Part shown: one piece after another, positions 1 to 54,190 of the stretch
Layout: each line of letters begins with the position of its first letter
How positions within the stretch are numbered: the stretch's first letter is position 1
Source: Negaprion brevirostris
Taxonomy: Eukaryota
DNA length: 64,000 nucleotides
Assembly: GCA_030324005.1 (NCBI GenBank)
Contig: JARDVH010000169.1
Span: 10,841,224-10,905,223 of the forward strand
Reading direction: 5' to 3'
Translations under genes and position numbers: made by a program
The notes under the pieces: generated by a model
The model's input: only the letters and a program-made list of their open reading frames with translations
Told to the model about the DNA's origin: nothing
Database searches by the model: none

Positions 1-1979
1 TTGTCAGGTCAACTTAAAAAAGTCAAAGAGATACTCTGAGTCATCTTCAATAATTAAACAGGATCATCTGCATCAGTTAATACAAAAGAATAAAAGTGTT
101 CTGGATCACTGCTGAGCAGGCAATTAATATGTAGAACATCAAGCCAGATGGAAAGGTTATTTTACTATCTATCAGTACTTGTATGGAGTCTGCAGTGGAA
201 TAACCACGATACAGCTAAACCAAATCTTATCACTTGTACTTCAAAACCTGTATTTTTAATAAGAAACATGAACACAATCCCCAAAGATGATTCAGCTTCC
301 CTTTGATCTGTTCATTTTTAATCATGCTCGCTTCAAAAACTGACATAAGTGATATGTTTATCATTTAAATACCTGCTTGTGCTTGGGTAATGACTTAAAA
401 ACTGAAAAGGGTGTCAGCAGTAATAACAGTTTTGTTACTAATGATAGAGCACATGGATATTTTCCTGGCGTTGCTACAATTACATAATATTAAACAACAG
501 GGATTTGTGCCTGCACTTCACACTTTCCACTTATCTCAAATGATTTGGACACAGGAACAAAAAAAATGTCAAAGTTTGCTAATAATACAAATTAAGGACA
601 CAACAAGCTGTGAGGAATAATGCAAGCAATTCCAGGAAATCGAAGGCTAGCAGAGATACTGGTCAACGCTGAGGAATGTGCAGTAATACACTGGGAAAAA
701 AGAAAAACAGAATACCTTGAATGTTTGTGTTCAAATATACTTTCCAAAGTGGAAAACAGGAAAAGTCAAGGGTGCAAATATATTAATCTTTAAAAAGTGG
801 CAATACAGATTGACAAAAGCCATCAAAATAGAATGAACAATGAATAAAAAAAACATGGAAGGAGCATTGCCGACAACAAACTATTATGGGAATGTTGGAG
901 CCATGGAAATGGTACATGAAGATTCATAAATATGCTGGCAGGAATGAGAGTTGAGTGATGAACAAAGGTTCCAGAGAAATTGAGAACAAAAACTAAATAC
1001 TGGAGACACTCAGCAAGTCAGGAAGCATCCACTGTGAAAACACAAATCAGTTAACCTTTAAGTTATAAATTTTACCTCACTAAATTATGTATACCTGAAA
1101 TGACATCATTCGATTGGAAGTAAAGAGATTTGATACTTCCAATGGATGTGAAGAGTGCGATATAAATACTAGTTTTTCTTCAATACAAGTTTTTGGACCA
1201 TCTAGACATAGATACGAAATACCAAAAATATAATTAGGACACACTGACAAGAGCTAGCTGCAACACAGCCAGTAAATTGGCCCTCTTGACCAAATAATAA
1301 AGGAAATTTCATTGACATCTCAGACCCACAATGCAACTTAAAAGTTAAATGTAAAATCATTCTACATTTGCCCACCAGGTTCTACCTGTCTTGTTGTGTG
1401 ACTCAATCATGTTCCACCTTTATTTTAGATTTCCAGCATCAGCAGCATTTAGGTTTCACTGACAAAACAGAAGGGTGGGCTGGAGGAATACAACGCATTT
1501 AACATTATGAAAATTCTTTATTGGGGCTGCCAAATAATTTCAGTTAACTTGTGAGATTAACAGGTTAATTCTTTGGAAAATCAACTTGTTAATGCACAGT
1601 AATGACTGAAGTGACAGCTGTAATTTAATACTTGTAAACGTGAAGTAGGTGGAAGTGAGTGGTAAGCCAAATTGGATATTCCGAAATCTTCTTAGAATGG
1701 AAAAAAGCACAATCAAATTACAAAAGCAGTTGAAGACTTTTTTTTAAATGCATTTTTCCTTGTCAGTTGACTACATCCAAGTAAAAATAAATGTAATTGA
1801 TATATGAAGATATATTTTAAAAGTGAAACCTTTTCAAATGTACCAATAATGACTAGAGCATTTAACCCAGGAATTAATTTCAGTCAGGAACTCGGGCCTT
1901 GAGCTTGCATCCTATCCTGACTTGCAACTTTTTGTTCATAGCATCCTTGAACCTGCTTCATTTGAAGCAAATTTTAAAA

Positions 1980-2164
1980 ACGGCATCACAGCCTTTTGGC
2001 TAAGATACAAATGAGATCAAGTCTTGGAGGAAGTGCAATGCCTACTCCAATCAGCTTGGATCATGTAGATCAAGCCCAAGACAGGAGGTGAGAGCCCTAT
2101 CTTGTCAGTTTGGATCGGGAATGTCTCACATAGGCAGGTAACACTTTGGAGGTGTTATGCTATG
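1980..2164 (+). ncRNA. U2 snRNA-headed structured element (candidate snRNA-derived SINE or ncRNA copy; not a U2 gene)
   Basis: 1980-2006 matches U2 nt 1-27 at 22/27 positions (GCCTTTTGGCTAAGAT exact). It is followed by non-U2 sequence that folds into several hairpins. Confidence 0.55.
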
Positions 2165-2181
2165 AATGAGTAGTATTTGAT

Positions 2182-2516
2182 TAGAACCACAGAATCCTGT
2201 AGTGCAGAAGGAGGCCATTCGATCCATTGAGTCTGCACTGACCACAATCCCACCCAGGCCCTATGCCCATAATTCTGTACATTTATCCTAGCGAGTCCCC
2301 CTGACACTCCGGGGCAATTTTAGCACGGTCAATCCACATCCACCGAACCGGCACACCTTTGCACTGTGGGAGGAAACCAGAGCACCCAGAAGAAACCCAC
2401 GTAGATATGGGGAGAATGTGCAAACTCCACACAGACAGTGACCTAAGCCAGGAATTGAAATTGGGAAACTGGCAGTGTGAGGTGGCACTGCTAACCGGTG
2501 TGTCACTGTGCCACCC
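2182..2516 (-). mobile_element. HE1-type (V-SINE) tRNA-derived SINE, near full length
   Basis: Minus strand shows a tRNA-like head (GGTGGCACAGTG...), V-domain GGGTGCTCTGGTTTCCTCCCACAG and a CR1-like tail GAATGGCCTCCTTCTGCACT. Confidence 0.85.
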
Positions 2517-3975
2517 TTGTGCATTTAATATTCAAGGATATACGTAACATATTAAAGCATTTAAAAGAAATACATCAGAAACACGGAAAAAGAAATTGCA
2601 TCTTTTTGTATCTTGATCATCTCATTCAAGTGGAAATTAAGTGCAGAAAACTAAGTCAATAAATTTGTTTCAGTTGCTGACATGGTGGTCTGAGAGTTGA
2701 TCACTAAAGGAAATTAATTATCAACTCATTTACTCTCCGAACTCCTCCACTATCTTAAAAATCAGACTATCAACTACTTCAGACCGCCATATCCAGATCG
2801 TGTTCTAACTTATCTGGATGAACTGAAACCAAGCTTGTTACTACAAGAAATTTATGAACAGATTCCTTAAATGATACTTAAATGCAAACAGTTTGACTCT
2901 TATCTACAGGTTATTTACTATGCTCATGTGGAAATTTCCAGAACAGTTTCTGTACAAAAATCAATAACAAATGTAAAAGCTTCAAAACAAGTCCAAGCTG
3001 ATAACTCAACCAGTCAAAGCATGTAGTTGTTGATATTCTAGACGATAATCAAACTAGTGTGTGCCTCAGCATGAAGAAATGTATTCATAAAAGTTGTCCT
3101 GTTACAACCTTTGGAGCTGAACCATGCCAGCCAGGAAATTCTCAAGTTCAACGTGAGTCTTTGTTGACTGAGTTGGTTACGCCGAAAACACTTAACTGTT
3201 GTAATACATCATTTTACAAAATACCACGCAGAATACAAGTCAAAGTGTCATGTTGTTCTTCTGTTTGAGGAACATGGTGGTATTATTGTTTCCATCTCTC
3301 CCCTACCTGTAGGGAACTATAAAGAGAGCTAATTTTCTACACCAGAATTGGCAAGATGTGTGCTATGCCACACAAATTCAAACATGCAGGACACTAGCAA
3401 CCAGTAGTCATATTTTTGTTAGGTATATGTTCTAACTCTAATGGTCTTTGGTCACCCCTCTGCTATGCCTCAGATGATGACCAAGAAATGCTATGCTTAA
3501 TAAATGAGCAATTTAGGATTTTCATCTGTAGACAGTAACCTATTCCACAGTTGAAATAAGTTTGCATAAAATTTAGGTTTCTTGGTCTTTTTAAAATTGG
3601 AAGCATTCTCATGTTGAAAGGTAGGTGTGTTTTTTATATATGATTGTAAGCCAATGAGATTTTTTTTTTCTGAAAGGAACTGTAGAAATGGAAATTACCA
3701 CATGTAACTTGTACATAAATATGTAATTATGAAATATTTGGAACAGGTACACTAAATCCTTCCACTCTATTGAAAGGTAAGCATTTTGATCATGGCTACA
3801 ACCAAATACAAATGTAAGGTGAAGATGAGCAAATATATTTAAAGTTACTGGTGCAGATGAGGTAACTTGTTTTATTTCGAACTTCTGTTCTAAGAGCTAA
3901 ATAGTATGTGGCACACTTGGTTTGATAGTTTCAGCTGAGTCAGCAAAAAGCCTTTCACAACAAAATTAACTTTAC

Positions 3976-4222
3976 ATAAGAACATAAGAAATAGGAGCAG
4001 GAGTAGGCCATCTAGCCCTTCGAGCCTGCCCCGCCATTCAATAAGATNNNNNNNNNNNNNNNNNNNNNNNNNNNNNNNNNNNNNNNNNNNNNNNNNNNNN
4101 NNNNNNNNNNNNNNNNNNNNNNNNNNNNNNNNNNNNNNNNNNNNNNNTCTATCCACGCTAACACCCTACCCCCAACTCCATGCCCCCTTACCTTCTGCAA
4201 TAACCTCTTGAGGTACCTTGTC
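3976..4222 (-). mobile_element. Young CR1-clade (HER1-like) LINE, gap-interrupted
   Basis: 3' tail ataagaacataagaaataggagcaggagtaggcc; after the gap, RT peptide RLLQKVRGHGVGGRVLAWI. Confidence 0.85.
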
Positions 4223-15725: not shown

Positions 15726-16404
15726 TTGAAAATATCCCAAGGCACTACTCAGAAGCATAAACAGATATGCCCAGGGGGCTGAAGGAACAGACAGCAGTAC
15801 TGGAATAAGGCAGATGGTGCAGGTGGGGAACTGGAAACATGGACAGTTAAGAGGCTAATCATGGGAACACAAGAGCTCTTGAAGGATTGGATGAGTTTAC
15901 AGTAATAGGGAGAGACAAAGAATCCATGAAATTATACAAACACCAGAATTTTAAATTATTGAGTGGCTGAATACCCTAAGTCTGCTCCTATTTTTATGTT
16001 CACATATTTGAAACACAGAGGGACCAGGAGCCAATGTAGGTCACTAAGAGCAGGGCTAATGAATGGTGCAGGAGGGGAAAGGACAGATCAGCTGTTGTTT
16101 TAATTTTTCCATGGATGATGGAAGGACACAACTATGATAGTTGACTCTGGAAGTGGTTATGTTGTGAATGAGGATTTCAGCAGAAATGAACTGAGACTGG
16201 ACATATGCAGGCAATGCTATGAAGGAGGATGACTGCAGACTTTCTGATGGTGCAAACAATTACATACTTATATTAGAAATACAAAATGCAACCCTTTAGT
16301 TTTGGCAGTTTGTTTTAATGTGACCAATATTGAGATAGTTCCTGTCCAATAACAGCCTGTTAGCTCGAAAATCCATTTCTTCAGATTAAAAACTGAATAA
16401 ATAT

Positions 16405-18865: not shown

Positions 18866-19487
18866 CTTTTCTTTTTCATGAGGAAGATGGGTAACTGGTA
18901 GAGACGAAGGGGAAGAATTATTGTATTTTGTTGCTCCCCTGCCTCCTGCATTCCCATAATTCAATCNNNNNNNNNNGGCCATCCTTTAATATTCTCCCAT
19001 TATTCACAGCACGCTTGGTAGCTAGTCTAAGCCTCTGCTGAAATGTTGAACTGCTGGTAATAGTAGCTAAATCACTTTGGCTTCTCAAATATTTCTCTAT
19101 GTTCTTAAGTGAGGAACCATTTGGTTCTGCCAATCCTTCAACTGCTCTCTTGAGTATCTTATTCCAGTCCACATTACTAATATCAATGCAGTTTCTTGAT
19201 GTACACCCTTGTGTGGATTTTGAAAGACTGCAAGGCTTAATGGGTGTGAAACGTCCAGGTTTCTCTGGATCCTTGTAGGATGAAAGCCCTTTATTTGTAA
19301 CTTTAAGAATAGTGCCATCTTTCACACTAAGTTCCAGTTGTTCTAGAACAGTCTTCCTATCTAATCCATGTGAAGAGGATACTGCATGGCAAATTCTCTC
19401 CTCTGAGGGCCTTTGCTTTTGCTTTTTCACCTTCTGAATAGCTTCTAGAATCCATTCAGTGTATAGTGGGTTTGCAAGCTTTACCAT
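18866..19487 (-). CDS. kat6b: Histone acetyltransferase KAT6B (MORF/MYST4), first coding exon: N-terminal winged-helix WH1 and H15-like WH2 domains
   Basis: Translates as [36 protein letters not shown]...[20 protein letters not shown]...[22 protein letters not shown]. After the 10-N gap (18967-18976) a shifted frame reads [34 protein letters not shown] and ends at a phase-0 donor AAG|gtaggt (18866/18865). WH2 residues and the adjacent adk indicate KAT6B rather than KAT6A. Confidence 0.95.
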
Positions 19488-20611: not shown

Positions 20612-20745
20612 CTTGTTTCACACTTGAGCGCAGAATGGGCTGATAGCTAGCAGAGCGGGCGCCATTTTGTTCCAATGTTTGAACACCGGAGTTTACATGA
20701 AAGCGACATGACACTGATTACAGCCGAATGGAGTCCCATTATACC
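20612..20745 (-). other. kat6b: Probable non-coding first exon of kat6b
   Basis: Lies just downstream of the GC/CCAAT promoter cluster. Contains a sense-oriented YY1-type AAAATGGCG (20660-20668) and ends at donor AAACAAG|gtgcgt (20612/20611). TSS position is approximate. Confidence 0.55.
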
Positions 20746-20950
20746 CCGGCGTGCAACCTAACTCCAGCCTGGAAGTCCCGCCCCTCCGCTCTCCCATCAT
20801 TGGCCACGCGTCCCCTCCACCCCGGCCAGCCCGCACCACACCGCCGCCTGATTGGCAGAGGCCCTTGTCAATCATCAGCCCCCTTTCCTCCCCCTCCCCC
20901 CCGCCTCATCCAGCAGGTTCGGTTGGCCCGCAGTATTTATGTCATTTGCG
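20745..20950 (-). promoter_or_regulatory. kat6b core/proximal promoter
   Basis: ETS-like GGAAGT at 20771-20776 abuts GC box CCCGCCCC at 20777-20784. Two minus-strand CCAAT boxes (ATTGG at 20799-20803 and 20851-20855). C-tracts and high CpG density. Confidence 0.65.
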
Positions 20951-23900
20951 CACTGGGCTACAGCTAAATTTTAAGTTTGACGCGCTGCCTCCCAAGTTAA
21001 TTTGGCTGTGTCGCCGATGTATCACGTCGAATTATTTTTTCATCTCCCCCTCCGAAATCAGGTCACAAGTGCTGCAAAAAAAGACGCGAGTAGCGATCAA
21101 TTTTAAGTTTCAGCGAAATGCCGTCCCGAATTAAAACTGATTTTTGAGGCTTCTTGCACGGCAACTGAATGTCAAGTTGCTCCCTTTTATTCTTAAAAAA
21201 ACCCTCTCAAGGCAATATTTGGAAGACCGACGTTTTTAAGCACCCCCTCCCAAATCTATTATTTCTGAATGGTGAATGTTAAACTAGAGATCGATGTTTG
21301 GATGAACATTTGGATCAGTGTCGAGCGCAGTGCTGCCCTCACTGATACCAGCAACCACCCCCTATCGCTTAACGCAAAGGCGGGGGGGGGGGGGAGAGAA
21401 GGATAAAGAGGAAAAAAACACAACAAAGTGGGCCATTTCATAATTTCTTTTCCCCCCTTCCCTGCCCGTTGCAAATTAATATTTATGAGGGGAGGTTTGT
21501 CTTGGTGCTCGGCTCGCGCTGCTTTTGAAAATTCAAACGGGAGCTGGCAAGTTGCTGCCTTTTAAAACAACCTCAGCCGGGAGGAAAATGGCGCATAAAT
21601 GTGTAATGTGTTTCAGATATATAAAAATATATCTTCATATATATATATATAAACAAAGCATGCGGAACTGGCACCTCATTTCCCATTTTTTAAAAGCCTT
21701 TATTTTGTATTTGAGAGGTGGTGGGAGTAGGAACAGCGGCTAAGAGAAAGTATCTGAGGCGGTTGGAAGCTTCTGGAAAGTGCTCCCCGGCCCCCCCCGT
21801 GGCCCAACGGTCGCTCATTAAGCAGGCGGCGCGAGACAGCCCCGCGCAGTCGTGGGGGAGGCAGGAGTCACACGACGGCGGGCTGCTAACCGCCGCTCAC
21901 GGGATTCGGTCTCCCGCAGCCGCCTCATTACCACCTAGTCCCAAAGGTTAAAACATCTGCGCGCGCGCCATCACCAGTTAGTGCCCGCTGCCACCCGCGC
22001 CAGTTGGCGCCCTTGCCCCCCGTCTTGTTTTGTTCGTCAGGGCGCTTCCAACTCAGTAGCCTGCCAACTTGTCCAGTTTCCTCCCCCACCCCCAACCCTT
22101 CCAGCTTTTATTGTGAAGTCATTTTTTTCAAAAAACAAACTTATCATTTTTAGATTTAAGTTTATTTGTCTCCACTTCCTCTTCTTGGAACAATTTTAAT
22201 AACCTCCCAGTAAACAGGCTTGCGACCTGGTGGCTTTTTGGCTCAGATCTTGTGCTATATGCCAGCTGTCTCGATTTCTTACGCAGGGTAACAGATGGCA
22301 CACACAACCACACAGGCGAGGTACTGTAAACCACACAAAATAGCCCATCATTAATTCTGAGGGCATTTCTTCCAACCCTGTTTTGAACTGTATTTGAGGT
22401 CCACTTTGTGTACACTTGCATTTTATATATTGATATACATTAGTGAATGTTCTTTTTCACCAGTTAAAAATTACCTCCAACTAAAAATCTCTTAATTACA
22501 GCAAAAGTGTGTTTTGCAAAACTATTGCTGAGAACAAACATTGATAAATTAATATGGAATTTTTTTAGTAATGTTTACAAACATTGAACTGCTACTGCTT
22601 CCTGGAATTCCAAATCAAATGGATAAAATAATCATATGTGCACAAATATTTATCAACTATCTGATCCATAAAGATTAAGGGTAGTTCTGAGAGCTTAAAG
22701 TATATGCAAGTTAATTGTGGGTGACAATAATTCCAATACTTTCCCAAGGATAGCCAAGTTCGAAAACACAGTTAAACTTAATTGATCAAAAGTCACATGA
22801 AAAATAATATGTAATTTTGTGATTTTGGTACCTTTTTTCATATTTTAATCAGGGTCATGGACTTGAGTGCTTGTTAAATGGGGATGACTATATTGAAACA
22901 CACTAGGTTCAGTCATGTAGGATGCTGTTTTGTTTATATGAGGCTTACAATACCGTGGAACCTCATTGTGAAGTGTAGTGAAATATGAACAATTAGAAAT
23001 GTGCTCCAAATTAAAGAACATACTGGCATAAAGAAAGAATGGTAGAACACTGTTTGCCATTGGACTGTGTTCCCATTTTGTGGTAGAGTGGAATCTGCAA
23101 ATTCATTTTTTTTGACAATATGGCAAATAAACATGATGAGTATTTGCTAACTACATATCAGCTAAAAACAGAATGATTTAACGATCACTGTGTGGAATAC
23201 CAACAATTTTATTCTATTAACCATGGACCATGCCCCTTCAATGCAACAGTGTTTACATAATATAATCCCTATTCACTCCCTTTGTTAATTTGGAAGCTGC
23301 ATACTTCAAGATTTGTATCTTGGATCTTTGTATCTAGAAATCTTTATATAGGAAAGAGTCCATTCAGCCCCTCAAGCTTACACTTTCCAACTCAAATTTG
23401 TCATATACCTCTTCAAAATAGCAATGCACGTGGTATCCTGTGATTTTAATTAATTTTCTCCAAACATAGTGTTCATTTCTCATAGTCCATGTGATACCTG
23501 TGGAATACTTCACCTAACAATTTAATAAAGTTTTGTTTTGTAAATAGCACATCATGCAAACAATTCTCATACAGGTAGGGACACATTTACTATACACACA
23601 CACATATGTGCAAAAAACAATCAAAAACTACTTTCTCAAGAGCCATCAGCAGTTGAAACATTCAAACAGCTGTCAATGGCTCAACATCAGCAAGTGTACA
23701 GCTGTAGGTACTGGAATTTATGCTGAATAACTCTACCATTGTCCAAGAAAAGCATTAACAGATTAAAACCCCAGTTGTAAAAGGCAATTATAATTTCTTA
23801 AAGTTGGATCACTTAAATTACACTAATAAAATCTTACACATGGAACTGAATGCAATACTTATTCAACAAATAGATGGAACTGTTGGAATTCAAGTTGAGA

Positions 23901-29892: not shown

Positions 29893-30200
29893 TATAAGAA
29901 CATAAGAAATAGGAGCAGGAGTAGGCCATCCAGCCCTTCGAGCCTGCCCCGCCATTCAATAAGATCNNNNNNNNNNNNNNNNNNNNNNNNNNNNNNNNNN
30001 NNNNNNNNNNNNNNNNNNNNNNNNNNNNNNNNNNNNNNNNNNNNNNNNNNNNNNNNNNNNNNNNNNTCAGGCCAACCCCATCCCACCTGAACAGGTCCCA
30101 CCTACCCCAATACTGATGCCAATGCCCCATAAATTCAAACCCAGTCCTCCCACACCAATCCCTGAGCCACCCATTCACTTCCTTAATCTCATCAACCTTC
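29893..30200 (-). mobile_element. Young CR1 LINE, probably near full length, collapsed into a 100-N gap
   Basis: 3' tail on the left of the gap; ORF1 esterase-like peptide EIKEVNGWLRDWCGRTGFEFMGHWHQYWGRWDLFRWDG on the right. Confidence 0.8.
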
Positions 30201-33580: not shown

Positions 33581-36429
33581 TTAACAACAGGCAAGAGGAT
33601 TAAAAAAGCTTTATGTTGCAACTAAATATACCACATTTTTGCTTCGGCCATGGATGCATGCAAGATACTTGATTATATTTCATGTTGATAAAATTAGCCT
33701 TTTCTAAAATCTTCAGCACCTTTGTCTTTGGGAAGTGGCCAGCTTATCAAGGTCAGAAGTACTAAGAAATTGCAGTTTTTCTTTTCATAACTTAAAAAAT
33801 GTTAATTAATGATTTGTTTCTGTTTTATGTATGGCATTTGAGTTAATGAGATGCAGTGTGACATATTTTGAAGCTTGATGTTTCAAGATGAGCCAGACAC
33901 ATGTCAAAATTAGTGGGAAGGTTCCTTGACTTCCCTTGGTGTTCAAGGAATCCCATAACATGCACTGAGACACAGAAACAAGAAAATTCACTAGTTTCAT
34001 CTCCTGGTCTGTGGTAAATTAGTAGATCTCAGATGGTAATGGTTCCTTTAACAATTAGACTCAAGCATTACCCAAAATAATGGTGTGGGAGGGGTTAGGC
34101 TAGGACTTGATGCTGATGCCTCCCACAGTTCAGCAGTTTGCCAACATTCACTTTAATGAAGATTGCCCACGTAGGCAAGGAACTAGAAACTGCTTTTGCC
34201 TTAAAATACCATTATTCGCAAGAGGTTAACTGCTTGGTTTGGGTGAGGATGGGGGGGCAGTAGTGATTAAATAGCATTATTCTTCATCTTTTCAAAAAGA
34301 TAAAAATAACTGCAACTTTTAATGGTAACATGGATTTCTCTTTGAATGTAGGGACATCTGTTTCCCCTTTTCCTTATATTGTTAAATTTAATTCCAAGAG
34401 TTATTAGTCTGGCACACCATGATGGTCTTTTTTTCATTCTAAATTATTTATCAATGATTAGGTGAGGTAAAAATGAACAACAAATATGCTTAAGTAATCA
34501 CTGAGTTAAGGGAAGATTTATTTAAATATTCAAGTCACACACACGTATAAATCAGTTTTAGGAAGATTATTAAATTAATGAGTAATTGGGATGAGGGGCA
34601 AATAATTATTGCTCATCACATCATCTGAATGAAGGAAAATAAATGTGATCAAAAGCCATATTTTCAATGTTTTTATTTTTGAAGCATCATTTGTCACCCT
34701 TATTCTTTCTCAAGTACATTTAAATAAAGCCAAAACATGATGAAATAAAAAACTGCGACGAAATCTATCTACTCTGACACACTGCTGAGTACCAATTTCC
34801 TTCTCTTGCAGTTAAATCAATATGGTGTTTGAGTAAACAAAGTTAAAGCTTTATTAGAGTGGTCTGCTTGTTCTGTAACAGCTACTTGATGTCCTGGTTA
34901 CAATTCAGCCTAACACATAAGTAATCAGTTGTTAACTGAACAAAAGTACCCAGAAACTGGAGCACTTGTAAGCACCTATAATACCTGTATATAAATGCTC
35001 CAAAATTCTGTAACACTAGGTGCTTTGAGCTTGGTTGTCTATTATCACATTCCCTAAATGATTTACTGCCAACATTTTTGCCAGAAATATGGTTCATCAG
35101 TAAAATTGCAAATTAGAAAAAGACAGAGACTAATTGAATTTATGGTTTGTACTAATTATCATGAACTGTTTTGGCTTAAAACATTGTCTGAAAAACAATA
35201 TCCTATGAGTCAATTCACCTATGAGTTGGCTTATTACTAGCTTCTTTTTTTCAAAATGATGACATGTAAACTGAGTAAGATTACAAAACCATTTGAACCA
35301 GGCTTTGGCCTGAACTGCTAGCAGCTTAAGGATCAATAGATATGTAATGAATTCAATAATTTTACATCTTTTGTCACAAACGTGGTACCCATTTACAAAG
35401 CAGCTGTATTTTTATTAAGCTAGTGATCTATTGTAATCCCACAGGGAAATTAACTTAGCACTGGAAATACAAGTATTTTCAATATATTATGTTGACTTCA
35501 CATACAACAAAACTATAATGTAAAATAATGTGTTTTCTTTCCTTTTTCTTCATAGTCCTCAATTAGTTCTCCCAATTCAAATGCTTATCATCCCACTGAG
35601 TTTGCACTAATAAGACATTTAAAATTCCACCTGATGGGCATCTGAAATTTCATTTGCTAGGCATGTTGCTTCCATGCCAACTACCTTTTGGATTTTATAA
35701 ATATTGCCGACAGATATCAATACAAGCATTGTATTGATAGTATTAAAAGGCAGTTCACAAATTTCATTTTAATCAATGAAAATATACATCCTGTTGAGGA
35801 ATAAAAACAACAAAAGAAAACTGGTCCATTTGTGCCTAATAAGGGAAGTTAAAGAATAGCAAGTCTGAGAAGTGAAAGGATGGGCATGAAATTGATAGAA
35901 AATAGAAAACAGATAATTAAAGCTTCTATTAGTATGTAAAAAGGAAACGATTAGTGGAAGTAAATGTGGCTCCCTTACATGTAGAGACAGAAGGAATTCC
36001 AATGAGGAACAAAGAAACAAATTCTTTGTATCTGGAGACAAAAATATTTCAGAAATAGTGGGCAACCAAGCATCCAGCAATCCTGCTCCTATTTTGTTTG
36101 CTCTTCTGCTTGCACAGCATTCAACTACATTTGTTATCAATTAAAACTTTAGTGTAGCATTTCAGTCATAGTATGCTAACTTTTGAAAGTGTTGCACCAG
36201 AGATTGGAAGGCTGTGCGTTTCTGGATAATTCTCCATGTTGTAATTCTCAGGATCATCGAGAATTTCAGATTCTGAGAAATGGAACTGCCAATCGGAAAG
36301 AAAGTCATCATCACAGGCTGTTCATGTGCCTGTCCTCGAATAGTAGACTGAAATCAGCAGTCAGAGGACCATGAAACAAATCATCCACTTGCCCTCCCTC
36401 CTGGTTAGGGAATTACATGTTATATTGAA

Positions 36430-37982: not shown

Positions 37983-38130
37983 AAAGTAGAAAGTGCTGAA
38001 AAAACTCAGCAGATCTGGCAGCATCTGTGGAGAGAGAAACAGAGTTAATGTTTTGAAACTGACCTGCTGAATTTTTTCAGCACTTTGTTTTTATTTCAGA
38101 TCGCTAGCATCCACAGTATTTTGCTTTTAT
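37983..38130. mobile_element. Short fold-back (Penelope-associated/MITE-like) repeat
   Basis: aaagtgctgaaaaaactcagcagatc is the near reverse complement of gacctgctgaattttttcagcacttt; related pieces at ~985-1060, ~1410-1460 and 49400-49885. Confidence 0.65.
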
Positions 38131-44005: not shown

Positions 44006-44281
44006 CTTTCTTGGTGCTCAGCAGAAATTTATTCTGATGGTTAAAAAGGACCGTAGGAGGAGAGGTAATAAGCCATGGATAACGAAGGAGGTGAAGGAAA
44101 GTGTTAAATTAANNNNNNNNNNNNNNNNNNNNNNNNNNNNNNNNNNNNNNNNNNNNNNNNNNNNNNNNNNNNNNNNNNNNNNNNNNNNNNNNNNNNNNNN
44201 NNNNNNNNNNNNTATTGAATGGCGGGGCAGGCTCGAAGGGCTAGATGGCCTACTCCTGCTCCTATTTCTTATGTTCTTATG
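44006..44281 (+). mobile_element. Young 5'-truncated CR1 LINE collapsed into a gap
   Basis: ORF2 linker peptide KPWITKEVKESVKL before the gap and the standard 3' tail after it; possible TSD atgagat (43999-44005 and 44279-44285). Confidence 0.8.
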
Positions 44282-48809: not shown

Positions 48810-50450
48810 AGAAAGAGAAATCATGTTTCATAAACCTATTTGGAGCTTTTTTTGAGAATGTAATCAGCAGGAGTGATAAGGGAAGAAAGAGTAAATTTGG
48901 ATTTTCAAAAGACATTTGCAAAAGTGCCATACAAGAGGCTGTGGCACGAGATTTAGGGTGTATGGGATTGGGGGAATATCAGCTTGGATTGAGGATCAAT
49001 AAACTGAGAGAAAACAGAGTAGAAATAAATGGGTGACAGTTGGCAGGTTGTAACTAATAGTGAGCCTAGAGGATCAGTGCTTGACCTCAGTATTTACAAT
49101 CTATATCAATGACTTAGATCAGAAGACTGAGAATAATGAGTCCAAGTCTCCTGTCAATACAACGCTGGGTGAGAAAGTAAACTTCGAGGACACAACAGAA
49201 AGGCTGCAATGTAGTATAGGCAAGTTCAAATGATTGGGCAAGAAAATAGCAGAAGTAGTTCTCCACTTCAGTAGAAAAAACAGGAAAACAATATTTTTTT
49301 CAAAACTAAGAGACTCGTTAATTGTTGGCACGCAGAGCGATTTGGATGTCCTTGTACACAAATCACAACGCTAACATTCAATTAAGAAACAAATGGTATG
49401 AAACAGAAAATTCTGGAAATACTCAGCAGGTCAGGCAACAGCTGTAAAGAAAGAAACAGAGTGATTATTTCAGGTTGACGAACGTTCATCAGAACTGAAT
49501 GCGGTGCAGGTTTTTTTTTAAAGTTTATTTATTAGTGTCACAAGTAGGCTTACATTAACACTGCAGTGAAATTACTGTGAAAATCTCCTAGTCGCCGCAC
49601 TCCTGCGCCAGTTCAGGTACACTGAGGGAAAATTTAGCATGACCAATATACCTAGGAAGCACATCTTTCGGATTGTGGGAGGAAACCGGAGCACCCGGAG
49701 GAAACCCACACATACATAGGGAGAATGTGCAGACTCTGAACAGACAGCGACCCAAGCCAGGAATTGAACCCCGGTCCCTGGCACTGTGAGGCAGCAGTGC
49801 TAACCACTGCGCCACCGTGCTATTTTGAGTGTTTCCAGTAATTTCTACTTTAATTTGAGACTTCTAGCATCTTTAGTTTTGTGTCAAAGGTAAAAGATAT
49901 GTTAGCTTTTATACAAAAAGATTGGAGAATAGAAATCAGGAAGTCTTACAGCAAACATATAGAGCCATGGTGAAACCACACTTGGAGTACTATGGAGTTT
50001 TGGTGATCTTATTTAAGAATCTACTTGCCTTAGAGGTAATGCAGTCTAGTGTTTCACTAGACTGATTCCTGGCACAAGAGATTGTCCATGGGGAGAGATG
50101 AAGTAATCTAAATTGATTTGCCCTAGAGTTTAGAATAATGAAAGGTGCTCCTATTGAAGCATATAAAATTCTTGAGGGACTTTACAGGATAGATGTTTTC
50201 CCTGGCTGGAGAGTCCAGAATGATGGGTCACAGTCTCAGGATAAGGGTCGACCAGTTAGGGCTGAGATGAGGAGAAATTTTTTCATTCAAAAAACATTTG
50301 GGAGTGTTTGGAATTCTCTATCCCAGAAAGCTACAGACATTCAGCTATTGAGTATATTCAAGACAGATAGATTTGGAGATAGAAATACGAGGATAGGGCA
50401 GGAAAGTGCAATTGAGAAAAGTAGCCACGATCTTACTGAATGGCAGAACA
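48810..50450 (+). mobile_element. CR1 LINE (RT to 3' end) with nested insertions
   Basis: ttggattttcaaaagacatttg (LDFQKxF), ggatcagtgcttgacctcag, ccacacttggagtac (PHLEY); interrupted at 49400-49890. Confidence 0.8.
49520..49820 (-). mobile_element. V-SINE with an alternative tail, full length
   Basis: Head GCACGGTGGCGCAGTGGTTAGCACTGCTGCC with B box GGTTCAATTCC; tail ...AAGCCTACTTGTGACACTAATAAATAAACTTT followed by an A-run. Confidence 0.85.
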
Positions 50451-53917: not shown

Positions 53918-54190
53918 GACATAAGAACATAAGAAATAGGCGCAGGAGTAGGCCATCTAGCCCTTTGAGCCTGCCCCGCCATTCAATAAGATCATGGCTG
54001 ATCTGTCGTGGCTCAGTTNNNNNNNNNNNNNNNNNNNNNNNNNNNNNNNNNNNNNNNNNNNNNNNNNNNNNNNNNNNNNNNNNNNNNNNNNNNNNNNNNN
54101 NNNNNNNNNNNNNNNNNNCAGATCATCTATATAAATGGTAAATAGCTGAGGCCCCAGCACCGACCCCTGGGGCACTCCACTAGTCACCAA
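53918..54190 (-). mobile_element. Young CR1 LINE, gap-interrupted
   Basis: Standard 3' tail; intact RT motif VTSGVPQGSVLGPQLFTIYIDDL after the gap. Confidence 0.85.

Follow-up and report, generated by a model that had tools for sequence, protein, structure and literature searches.

A U2 snRNA-headed twin-hairpin insert in a KAT6B intron of Negaprion brevirostris, tentatively read as an old low-copy retroposon

What kind of element begins with the 5' end of U2 snRNA, continues with two similar hairpins in tandem and lies in an intron of a shark gene? This question is raised by a short stretch of the Negaprion brevirostris genome, located near the start of the 64,000 nucleotides that we analyzed (hereafter, the window). 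The stretch is a non-random feature, an insert of ~190 bases. Our favored explanation, possible rather than probable and based on the one copy examined, is that it is an old copy of a low-copy, U2-headed non-autonomous retroposon working like the SINEU elements of crocodilians. The features needed for the argument are the following.

1972-1980, plus strand: tract at the 5' junction, TTTT (1972-1975) followed by AAAAA (1976-1980)
1980-2006, plus strand: U2 snRNA 5' head, nt 1-27
2007-2015, plus strand: degenerate stretch resembling U2 nt 28-36 in a gapped alignment (one insertion, one mismatch, one deletion)
2014-2062, plus strand: arm 1, with an 8-bp basal helix carrying a bulged G, a 1x3 internal loop and a 6-bp inner stem
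2067-2116, plus strand: arm 2, tandem duplicate of arm 1 with the same architecture (period 53-54)
2050-2078: alternative central hairpin, formed by the 3' strand of arm 1 with the 5' strand of arm 2 and excluding both basal helices
2125-2170: third hairpin, longer than first reported
1976-2175, minus strand: host-sense reading, comprising a hairpin, a three-stem multiloop, a 10-bp terminal hairpin antisense to the U2 5' end and a T5 run
2176-2516, minus strand: neighboring tRNA-type SINE, outside the element, with 14 BLAST matches elsewhere in the window (69-86% identity)
18866-19487, minus strand: first coding exon of KAT6B (ATG at 19487, donor near 18866)

The 169-residue translation of the KAT6B exon matches entries from Scyliorhinus torazame and Cetorhinus maximus at 100% identity and that of Callorhinchus at 89%. 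No later KAT6B exon was found in the window; therefore, the element is located ~16.7 kb downstream, within the intron that follows the first coding exon. Its U2-sense strand is antisense to KAT6B and its minus strand is the host-sense one. The exon itself is interrupted by a gap of 10 N (18967-18976), probably an assembly join, across which the frame shifts, and a GC-rich KAT6B promoter region is found at ~20700-21000. Four copies of a 68-74 nt repeat (3973-4047, 29894-29965, 44213-44281 and 53919-53992), 96-100% identical and each beside an assembly gap, mark the end of a young repeat that the assembly collapsed. The SINE that adjoins the element, which we take to be HE1/V-SINE-like, may hide or split its 3' end. 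L2, CR1 and SINEs abound in shark genomes, and the same source cites SINEU for crocodilians only (PMC5381603).

The head was compared with U2 genes obtained from a scan of GTDB for the head pattern, which gave 46 loci, of which 41 were inspected; among the 16 scanned with Rfam, 12 exceeded the U2 gathering score. These U2-bearing loci are evidently eukaryotic contigs inside MAGs. The reference used here, L002, is a GTDB contig carrying a full-length vertebrate-type U2 gene (183.5 bits with the Rfam U2 model), and its U2 5' end is the same as the human U2 5' sequence in the supplement of PMC4640811. As initially annotated, positions 1980-2006, right after the tract, match U2 nt 1-27 at 22 of 27 positions by eye, and the match was recovered by nhmmer and local alignment; positions 1991-2006 are identical to nt 12-27 of the reference (16/16) and five of the 11 opening nucleotides differ from U2. 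Stem I of U2 is kept, with one pair lost, one wobble changed to a Watson-Crick pair and one pair gained. With a profile of 11 U2 genes run over the whole window, nhmmer found the head at E 0.0035, covering only U2 nt 7-27, and nothing else below E 6.9 in the 64,000 bases. Furthermore, the strict local score of the head is 33 versus best per-window scores of 24-31 in Markov null windows (40/40 lower), and the U2 21-mer of the Rfam consensus matches it with two mismatches, which none of 100 shuffles does. The U2 match thus exceeds chance, though modestly. The Rfam U2 model (RF00004) does detect the head, but weakly (12.7 bits versus a gathering score of 46, E 1.9-9.8), and recognizes none of stems IIa-IV in the element. 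Hallmarks of a full U2 gene or pseudogene (gathering score of 46, branch-site region, stem IIa, Sm site, PSE) were not found in it.

The sequence had been described as leaving U2 before the branch-point recognition sequence. This sequence is indeed not intact in the degenerate stretch at 2007-2015, which nhmmer does not score. However, a lenient gapped alignment carries the U2 match to nt 40-47 across the broken branch-site region, so that there is no clean exit from U2 at nt 27. The extension past nt 27 is not secure because, with the same lenient-gap scoring, a gappy match elsewhere (46780, minus strand) reaches 42 versus 44 for the head.

The two tandem arms with a common basal motif hold beyond 187 null windows. 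In a generic scan for tandem twin hairpins, the locus ranks first among 198 candidates with a consensus energy of -12.6, versus best values of -0.5 to -8.4 in 187 null Markov windows. The basal arm pattern, which was derived from these two arms themselves, occurs in the window at exactly two places, 2015-2062 and 2068-2116, and in none of 100 shuffles; likewise, a covariance model of the arms run over the window matches only the two arms. Basal motifs differ between the arms at two of 22 positions versus 14 of 29 for the inner parts (Fisher p 0.005). The inner stems had been considered as different and separately complementary. Pairing is kept in both, but 15 of the 29 inner alignment columns are identical; the similarity of the loops is matched by 45 of 5000 shuffles and that of the whole inner part by 283 of 5000. 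As judged from this alignment, the inner sequences are homologous, and the inner stem of arm 2 carries a C-A mismatch on the plus strand that is a G-U pair on the minus strand.

Do the differences between the arms preserve pairing? All 13 shared pairs (26/26 cells) are paired in the two-arm alignment, with three double and two single (wobble) changes, and sliding the pairing partners cuts pairing to 23-58%. The shuffle control (59/500) cannot reach significance because the alignment has only two sequences, and is therefore uninformative. In neutral simulations with at least eight differences, all pairs were kept in at most 11 of ~78,000-143,000 runs, a result that overstates the case for pairing since the pairs were picked from the observed arms. 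Moreover, the three double changes are adjacent and amount to the strand swap of one triplet with its complement; if they are taken as one event, the remaining pattern is obtained in ~8-11% of neutral runs. These three changes may be a single template-switch event. The initial annotation considered neither this mimicry of covariation nor folding of the opposite strand, that of the host pre-mRNA.

It had also been suggested that the arms are built from duplicated U2 sequence. Arm 1 opens with a 9/9 identity to U2 nt 24-32. Arm 2 begins like nt 24-31 (8/8) and ends like nt 44-55 (11/12); a motif like U2 nt 44/49-55 ends both arms, and the spacer shows a likeness to nt 25-40 with deletions. When tiles were scored specifically against U2 nt 24-61, 122 and 88 of 11,023 equaled the scores of the arms, which places each arm in the top 1%, the two arms being not independent of each other. 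In contrast, the body is unremarkable in an unbiased test with 11 whole U2 genes and both strands, as 120 of 358 tiles score as well. The U2 origin of the arms is thus suggestive only. Two further likenesses near the element lie within the chance range: a 10/12 likeness to the 3' motif of the arms at 1891-1911 (plus strand), upstream of the head, and a 10-bp perfect inverted repeat (1935-1944 and 2157-2166) that brackets the element.

The third hairpin was recovered (z -2.7) and extends to 2125-2170; the z score is -2.5 on the plus strand for 2124-2170, and -3.1 on the minus strand and -1.8 on the plus strand for 2115-2175. Each of the three body hairpins contains GGAGG on the plus strand (2026, 2084 and 2148), a pentamer found 115 times in the window, and the arms may have an older relative in the third hairpin. 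The earlier interpretation is partly supported, as regards the U2 origin of the head and the kept pairing in the two arms. The whole U2-sense strand folds no better than shuffles (z -1.05, 26/200, or -1.6). On this strand, a model with four hairpins is 5.4 kcal/mol above the minimum, and the pairs of arm 2, like the lowest four of arm 1, have a probability of 0.01-0.02 in full context. The whole minus strand reaches z -3.09 (0/200) or -3.4, with a minimum-energy fold close to the centroid, and its terminal hairpin reaches z -4.9. For the body alone, z is -3.4 on the minus strand versus -0.5 on the plus strand, and six of 218 window tiles reach -3. The minimum-energy fold of the minus strand uses the alternative central hairpin, and the U2-sense strand gives the better two-arm consensus (-12.6 and 15 pairs versus -9.2 and 12 pairs on the other). 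Elsewhere in the window, a hairpin of ~26 consecutive pairs at ~37990-38086 (z -5.6), part of which recurs at 49405-49470 (79%), is probably a small foldback repeat and has no Rfam match at gathering score; a multi-branched fold is found at 33780-34020 on the plus strand (z -3.0, 1/200; -5.4 for a 196-nt tile).

The minus strand was compared with the intronic scaRNAs that guide U2 modification according to the general rules for H/ACA and C/D guides. As in these scaRNAs, it has a pair of similar hairpins whose internal loops are conserved and whose upper stems vary, along with an H-box-like hinge and stretches antisense to U2. The hinge, ACATGA, is located between the arms (2066-2061) and overlaps the next stem. 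However, TCA instead of ACA follows the second hairpin, the distance from pocket to box is 10 nt (canonically 14-16 nt), and the U2 segments are 16 nt apart instead of 2, although a contiguous target is expected for an H/ACA guide. C/D guides have a 5' C box and D boxes after the antisense elements. Each arm contains one CUGA on the minus strand (CTGA at 2108 and 2054), but a C-like box occurs solely at 1989, downstream of both, and no D box follows the stretch antisense to U2. Neither strand of the element carries a canonical Sm site; a U1/U7-type site at 2012-2007 was rejected, its hexamer occurring 98 times in the window. Rfam 15 gave no match at gathering score over the whole 64,000 bases; when the element was searched at E values up to 10, no family of guide RNAs was matched. 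The loop of arm 1 on the minus strand matches the Rfam consensus of U2 stem-loop IV at 17 of 20 positions by eye, but this likeness is not significant and the loop heptamer is found 13 times in the window. A likeness to non-vertebrate U6 (14/16; score 22, near background) and a hammerhead core, judged by eye against its consensus, were also rejected. No tRNA gene was found. Downstream of the element, on the host strand, a weak match to SNORD18 (2563-2609, minus strand, E 5) includes part of the guide stretch and CUGA, and is probably due to chance. Since neither a PSE-like match, nor an octamer at the expected distance, nor a 3' box was recognized at the locus, it is not the master snRNA gene whose presence had been envisaged.

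The 5' junction resembles an endonuclease site of the L1/Tx1 type and fits the target consensus TT/WAAAAWW at six of seven positions by eye (consensus TT/AAAA and TT/WAAAAWW, PMC5322556); this likeness is weak because the background is AT-rich. The antisense orientation within an intron is also counted among the hallmarks of retroposition; the others were searched for around the element. No run of at least four A occurs on the plus strand in 1981-2530, the 3' end abutting the SINE insertion, and no poly(A) signal was found in 1970-2185. No target-site duplication (TSD) of at least 9 nt was found at 2150-2190, and only AT-rich 9-10-mers at chance level occur after the SINE; by eye and by a downstream search, no duplication of 8-35 nt flanks the head or overlaps the 3' end of the U2 part. 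The 21 of 79 flanking open frames that were scanned contain no LINE Pfam domain, although decayed ORFs could escape this search, and no open frame of at least 100 amino acids is present in 1-4047.

Nor did BLAST, local alignment or a covariance model detect a second copy in the 64-kb window (next match at E 0.87). Candidate partial copies at 16144, 18205, 22233, 39698 and 48978 have scores within the shuffled range, and terminal inverted repeats of a DNA transposon were rejected, only 10-bp pairs being present among 20 inverted pairs in 1.8 kb. The twin-arm pattern has no occurrence in GTDB genomes, blastn against phages and against plasmids gave no match in either, and these blanks, which shark DNA would be expected to give, say little because the collections are non-eukaryotic. 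None of the 41 inspected loci, out of 46 GTDB loci with a U2 head, shows a likeness to the body (best E 2.2). A text search of the literature with six 12-mers from the arms retrieved no paper on repeats or structured RNA by title, and in the literature searched, chiefly open-access papers, we found no description of this element, of a shark snRNA-headed SINE or of a KAT6B intronic guide RNA.

Among known systems, the closest likeness is to SINEU-1 and SINEU-3 (Kojima 2015, PMC4494074). As these SINEs, the element is short and non-coding, has a U2 5' head and no internal promoter, and contains an internal oligo(T) arguing against polymerase III. In SINEU-1, subfamilies came about through partial duplication and the repeated joining of U1/U2 pieces to the 5' end, which recalls the repeated U2-like pieces and the partial duplication seen here; SINEU-3 has a 32-bp U2 head (PMC4494074). 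Unlike SINEU, the element is found in a shark and shows neither poly(A) nor TSD, whereas all SINEUs are poly(A)-tailed and the study reports them in crocodilians only; in old SINEU-1 copies, TSDs are nevertheless hard to discern (PMC4494074). Its body is a twin hairpin, that of SINEU-3 being the 3' half of U2 (PMC4494074). SINEUs were probably mobilized by Tx1-Mar, and the study leaves their mode of transcription open (PMC4494074). As no poly(A) was found, we do not file the element as a member of SINEU.

A second comparison is with Keno (Tx1) and Utopia (NeSL), which insert before U2 nt 39 (PMC4640811). The element shares with them a U2 5' sequence directly upstream of foreign sequence, and its degenerate match ends near the nt 38/39 insertion site. 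Unlike them, it has no nearby ORF or LINE domain and no 3' U2 sequence from nt 39 onward, and it is located outside any U2 gene with a promoter. Among the inspected GTDB loci, 37 of 41 (within L001-L046) begin with a U2-like 5' end, some of them beside 5S, U5, U6 or tRNA genes; they are eukaryotic contigs placed in bacterial MAG records. Two eukaryotic U2-array members, L004 (316-431, minus strand) and L016, leave U2 after ~nt 40 and nt 33, respectively, and each may mark the 5' junction of a retrotransposon that targets U2. In L004, the stretch that follows resembles the U2 5' stem in inverted form. Contigs assigned to a Rubritalea MAG (L037 at 390-579 and 840-958, L003, L025 and L028) carry a full-length U2 gene (150.8 bits) with an unusual branch-site region and tandem U2 5' heads joined to other sequence. 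The element also resembles tailless or chimeric snRNA retropseudogenes, its U2 part being complete from nt 1, 3'-truncated in an A-rich single-stranded region and located at a TT/WAAAAWW-like site; it differs from them by the absence of a TSD and by a structured, duplicated body with more U2-like motifs (PMC5322556, PMC4476161).

An explanation that we consider unlikely, though the strongest of the alternatives, is a one-off chimera: a twin-hairpin element of unrelated origin was already in place, and next to it came a U2 fragment that was either 3'-truncated (tailless) or template-switched. The 9 nt that arm 1 shares with U2 nt 24-32 would then have helped U2 to dock and prime there, as a cause of the insertion rather than a trace of shared ancestry. 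Tailless copies prime internally, in A-rich single-stranded regions and at sites complementary to the RNA (PMC5322556), and chimeras of snRNA and LINE form with several LINE clades (PMC4476161). The fit of the junction, the restriction of the significant match to nt 7-27 and the lack of U2 likeness of the body in the unbiased test all agree with this scenario. However, the head has no flanking duplication of 8-35 nt, and docking leaves unexplained the U2-like ends of the arms (top 1% of 11,023 tiles) and the spacer like U2 nt 25-40. Furthermore, tailless copies are known, among the vertebrates screened, only from therian mammals and anole, and the available part of the report does not mention sharks (PMC5322556). 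A retrocopy of a real unannotated U2-variant snRNA, which would keep stem I and part of the U6-pairing region with the rest replaced, was proposed initially and is very improbable. Stem I is indeed kept, the length is near that of U2, and other eukaryotes have U2 genes with an altered branch-site region (L037, 150.8 bits); against it stand the lack of an Sm site on the plus strand, of the promoter and 3' box signals sought above, the broken branch-site region and the failure of the U2 model to recognize stems IIa-IV.

The minus strand may be the functional one, as a structured RNA from the KAT6B intron, or its relic, that binds U2 or guides U2 modification: it is antisense to the U2 5' end in its 3' hairpin, and complementary to nt 25-32 and 49-55 in its conserved internal loops. 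In favor of this rather improbable proposal, the minus strand is the host-sense one and folds significantly, it carries CUGA in each arm, the ACATGA hinge and the likeness to stem-loop IV, and at the two positions where the basal motifs differ, this strand has A or G facing a U of U2 (by eye), so that either base can pair. But box, spacing and target contiguity fail for H/ACA, the upstream C box and the Sm site are lacking, no Rfam family was found, the stem-loop IV likeness is not significant and the terminal hairpin is partly inherited from the stem of U2 itself. Slightly less credible still is a history at the DNA level without RNA function, in which a short inverted repeat would have been tandemly duplicated and kept paired via replication template switching, the U2 piece being a decayed fragment or due to chance. 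Template switching makes or repairs stems and gives multi-base compensatory changes (10.1101/2021.04.15.439925), and the double changes adjoin one another. Words of the basal stem recur in the inner stems (by eye), single arms reach only z -1.4 to -1.8 on the plus strand and the two-sequence shuffle control gave 59/500. In contrast, the bulge and the 1x3 loop are unrepaired in both arms, basal parts are more conserved than inner ones, four successive hairpins are separated by short spacers and the U2 match is beyond chance per window.

We therefore return to the SINEU-like retroposon, which would account for a U2 5' end joined to two tandem copies of a 53-nt hairpin and to a third hairpin, the whole lying antisense in a KAT6B intron at a TTTT/AAAA site. 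A LINE reverse transcriptase of the L1/Tx1 type would have switched template to U2 RNA, adding its first 27-36 nt to a structured RNA, and a partial duplication would have doubled the hairpin unit. The two units would then have diverged in a master copy with pairing kept. Read-through from a polymerase II promoter in its flank would have transcribed this master; polymerase III is made less likely by the T4 run in U2 stem I. The present copy would have been inserted by target-primed reverse transcription, its 3' end having since decayed or been hidden by the later SINE insertion. We count in favor of the SINEU-like retroposon that the U2 match is significant and starts at the 5' end of the RNA, together with the endonuclease-like junction, the basal conservation, the kept pairs and the two-arm consensus of the plus strand. 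We count against it the absence of a second copy in 64 kb, of poly(A), of a TSD of at least 9 nt and of a LINE domain in 21 of 79 frames, the poor fold of the plus strand, the clustering of the double changes and the fact that SINEU is undetected outside crocodilians. Concerning copy number, SINEU families have ~137-7,700 copies per genome (PMC4494074), so that no second copy is expected in 64 kb.

A bolder possibility, to which we assign a low probability, is a lineage-specific structured RNA made from U2 pieces. It would be either a retroposon family with an snRNA head, the first one outside crocodilians, whose twin-hairpin body selection has kept, or, boldest of all, a host-strand intronic RNA presenting three antisense segments (5' stem I, nt 25-32 and nt 49-55) that would bind or remodel U2 without known guide-RNA boxes. 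A single U2 fragment beside a decayed hairpin would be of little importance. If the host strand is the conserved one, the locus would represent a new kind of U2-binding intronic RNA. If a shark family does exist, snRNA-headed retroposons would have arisen independently or be far older, and, if its twin-hairpin body is conserved, this body would be a candidate for an RNA structure recognized by the LINE partner.
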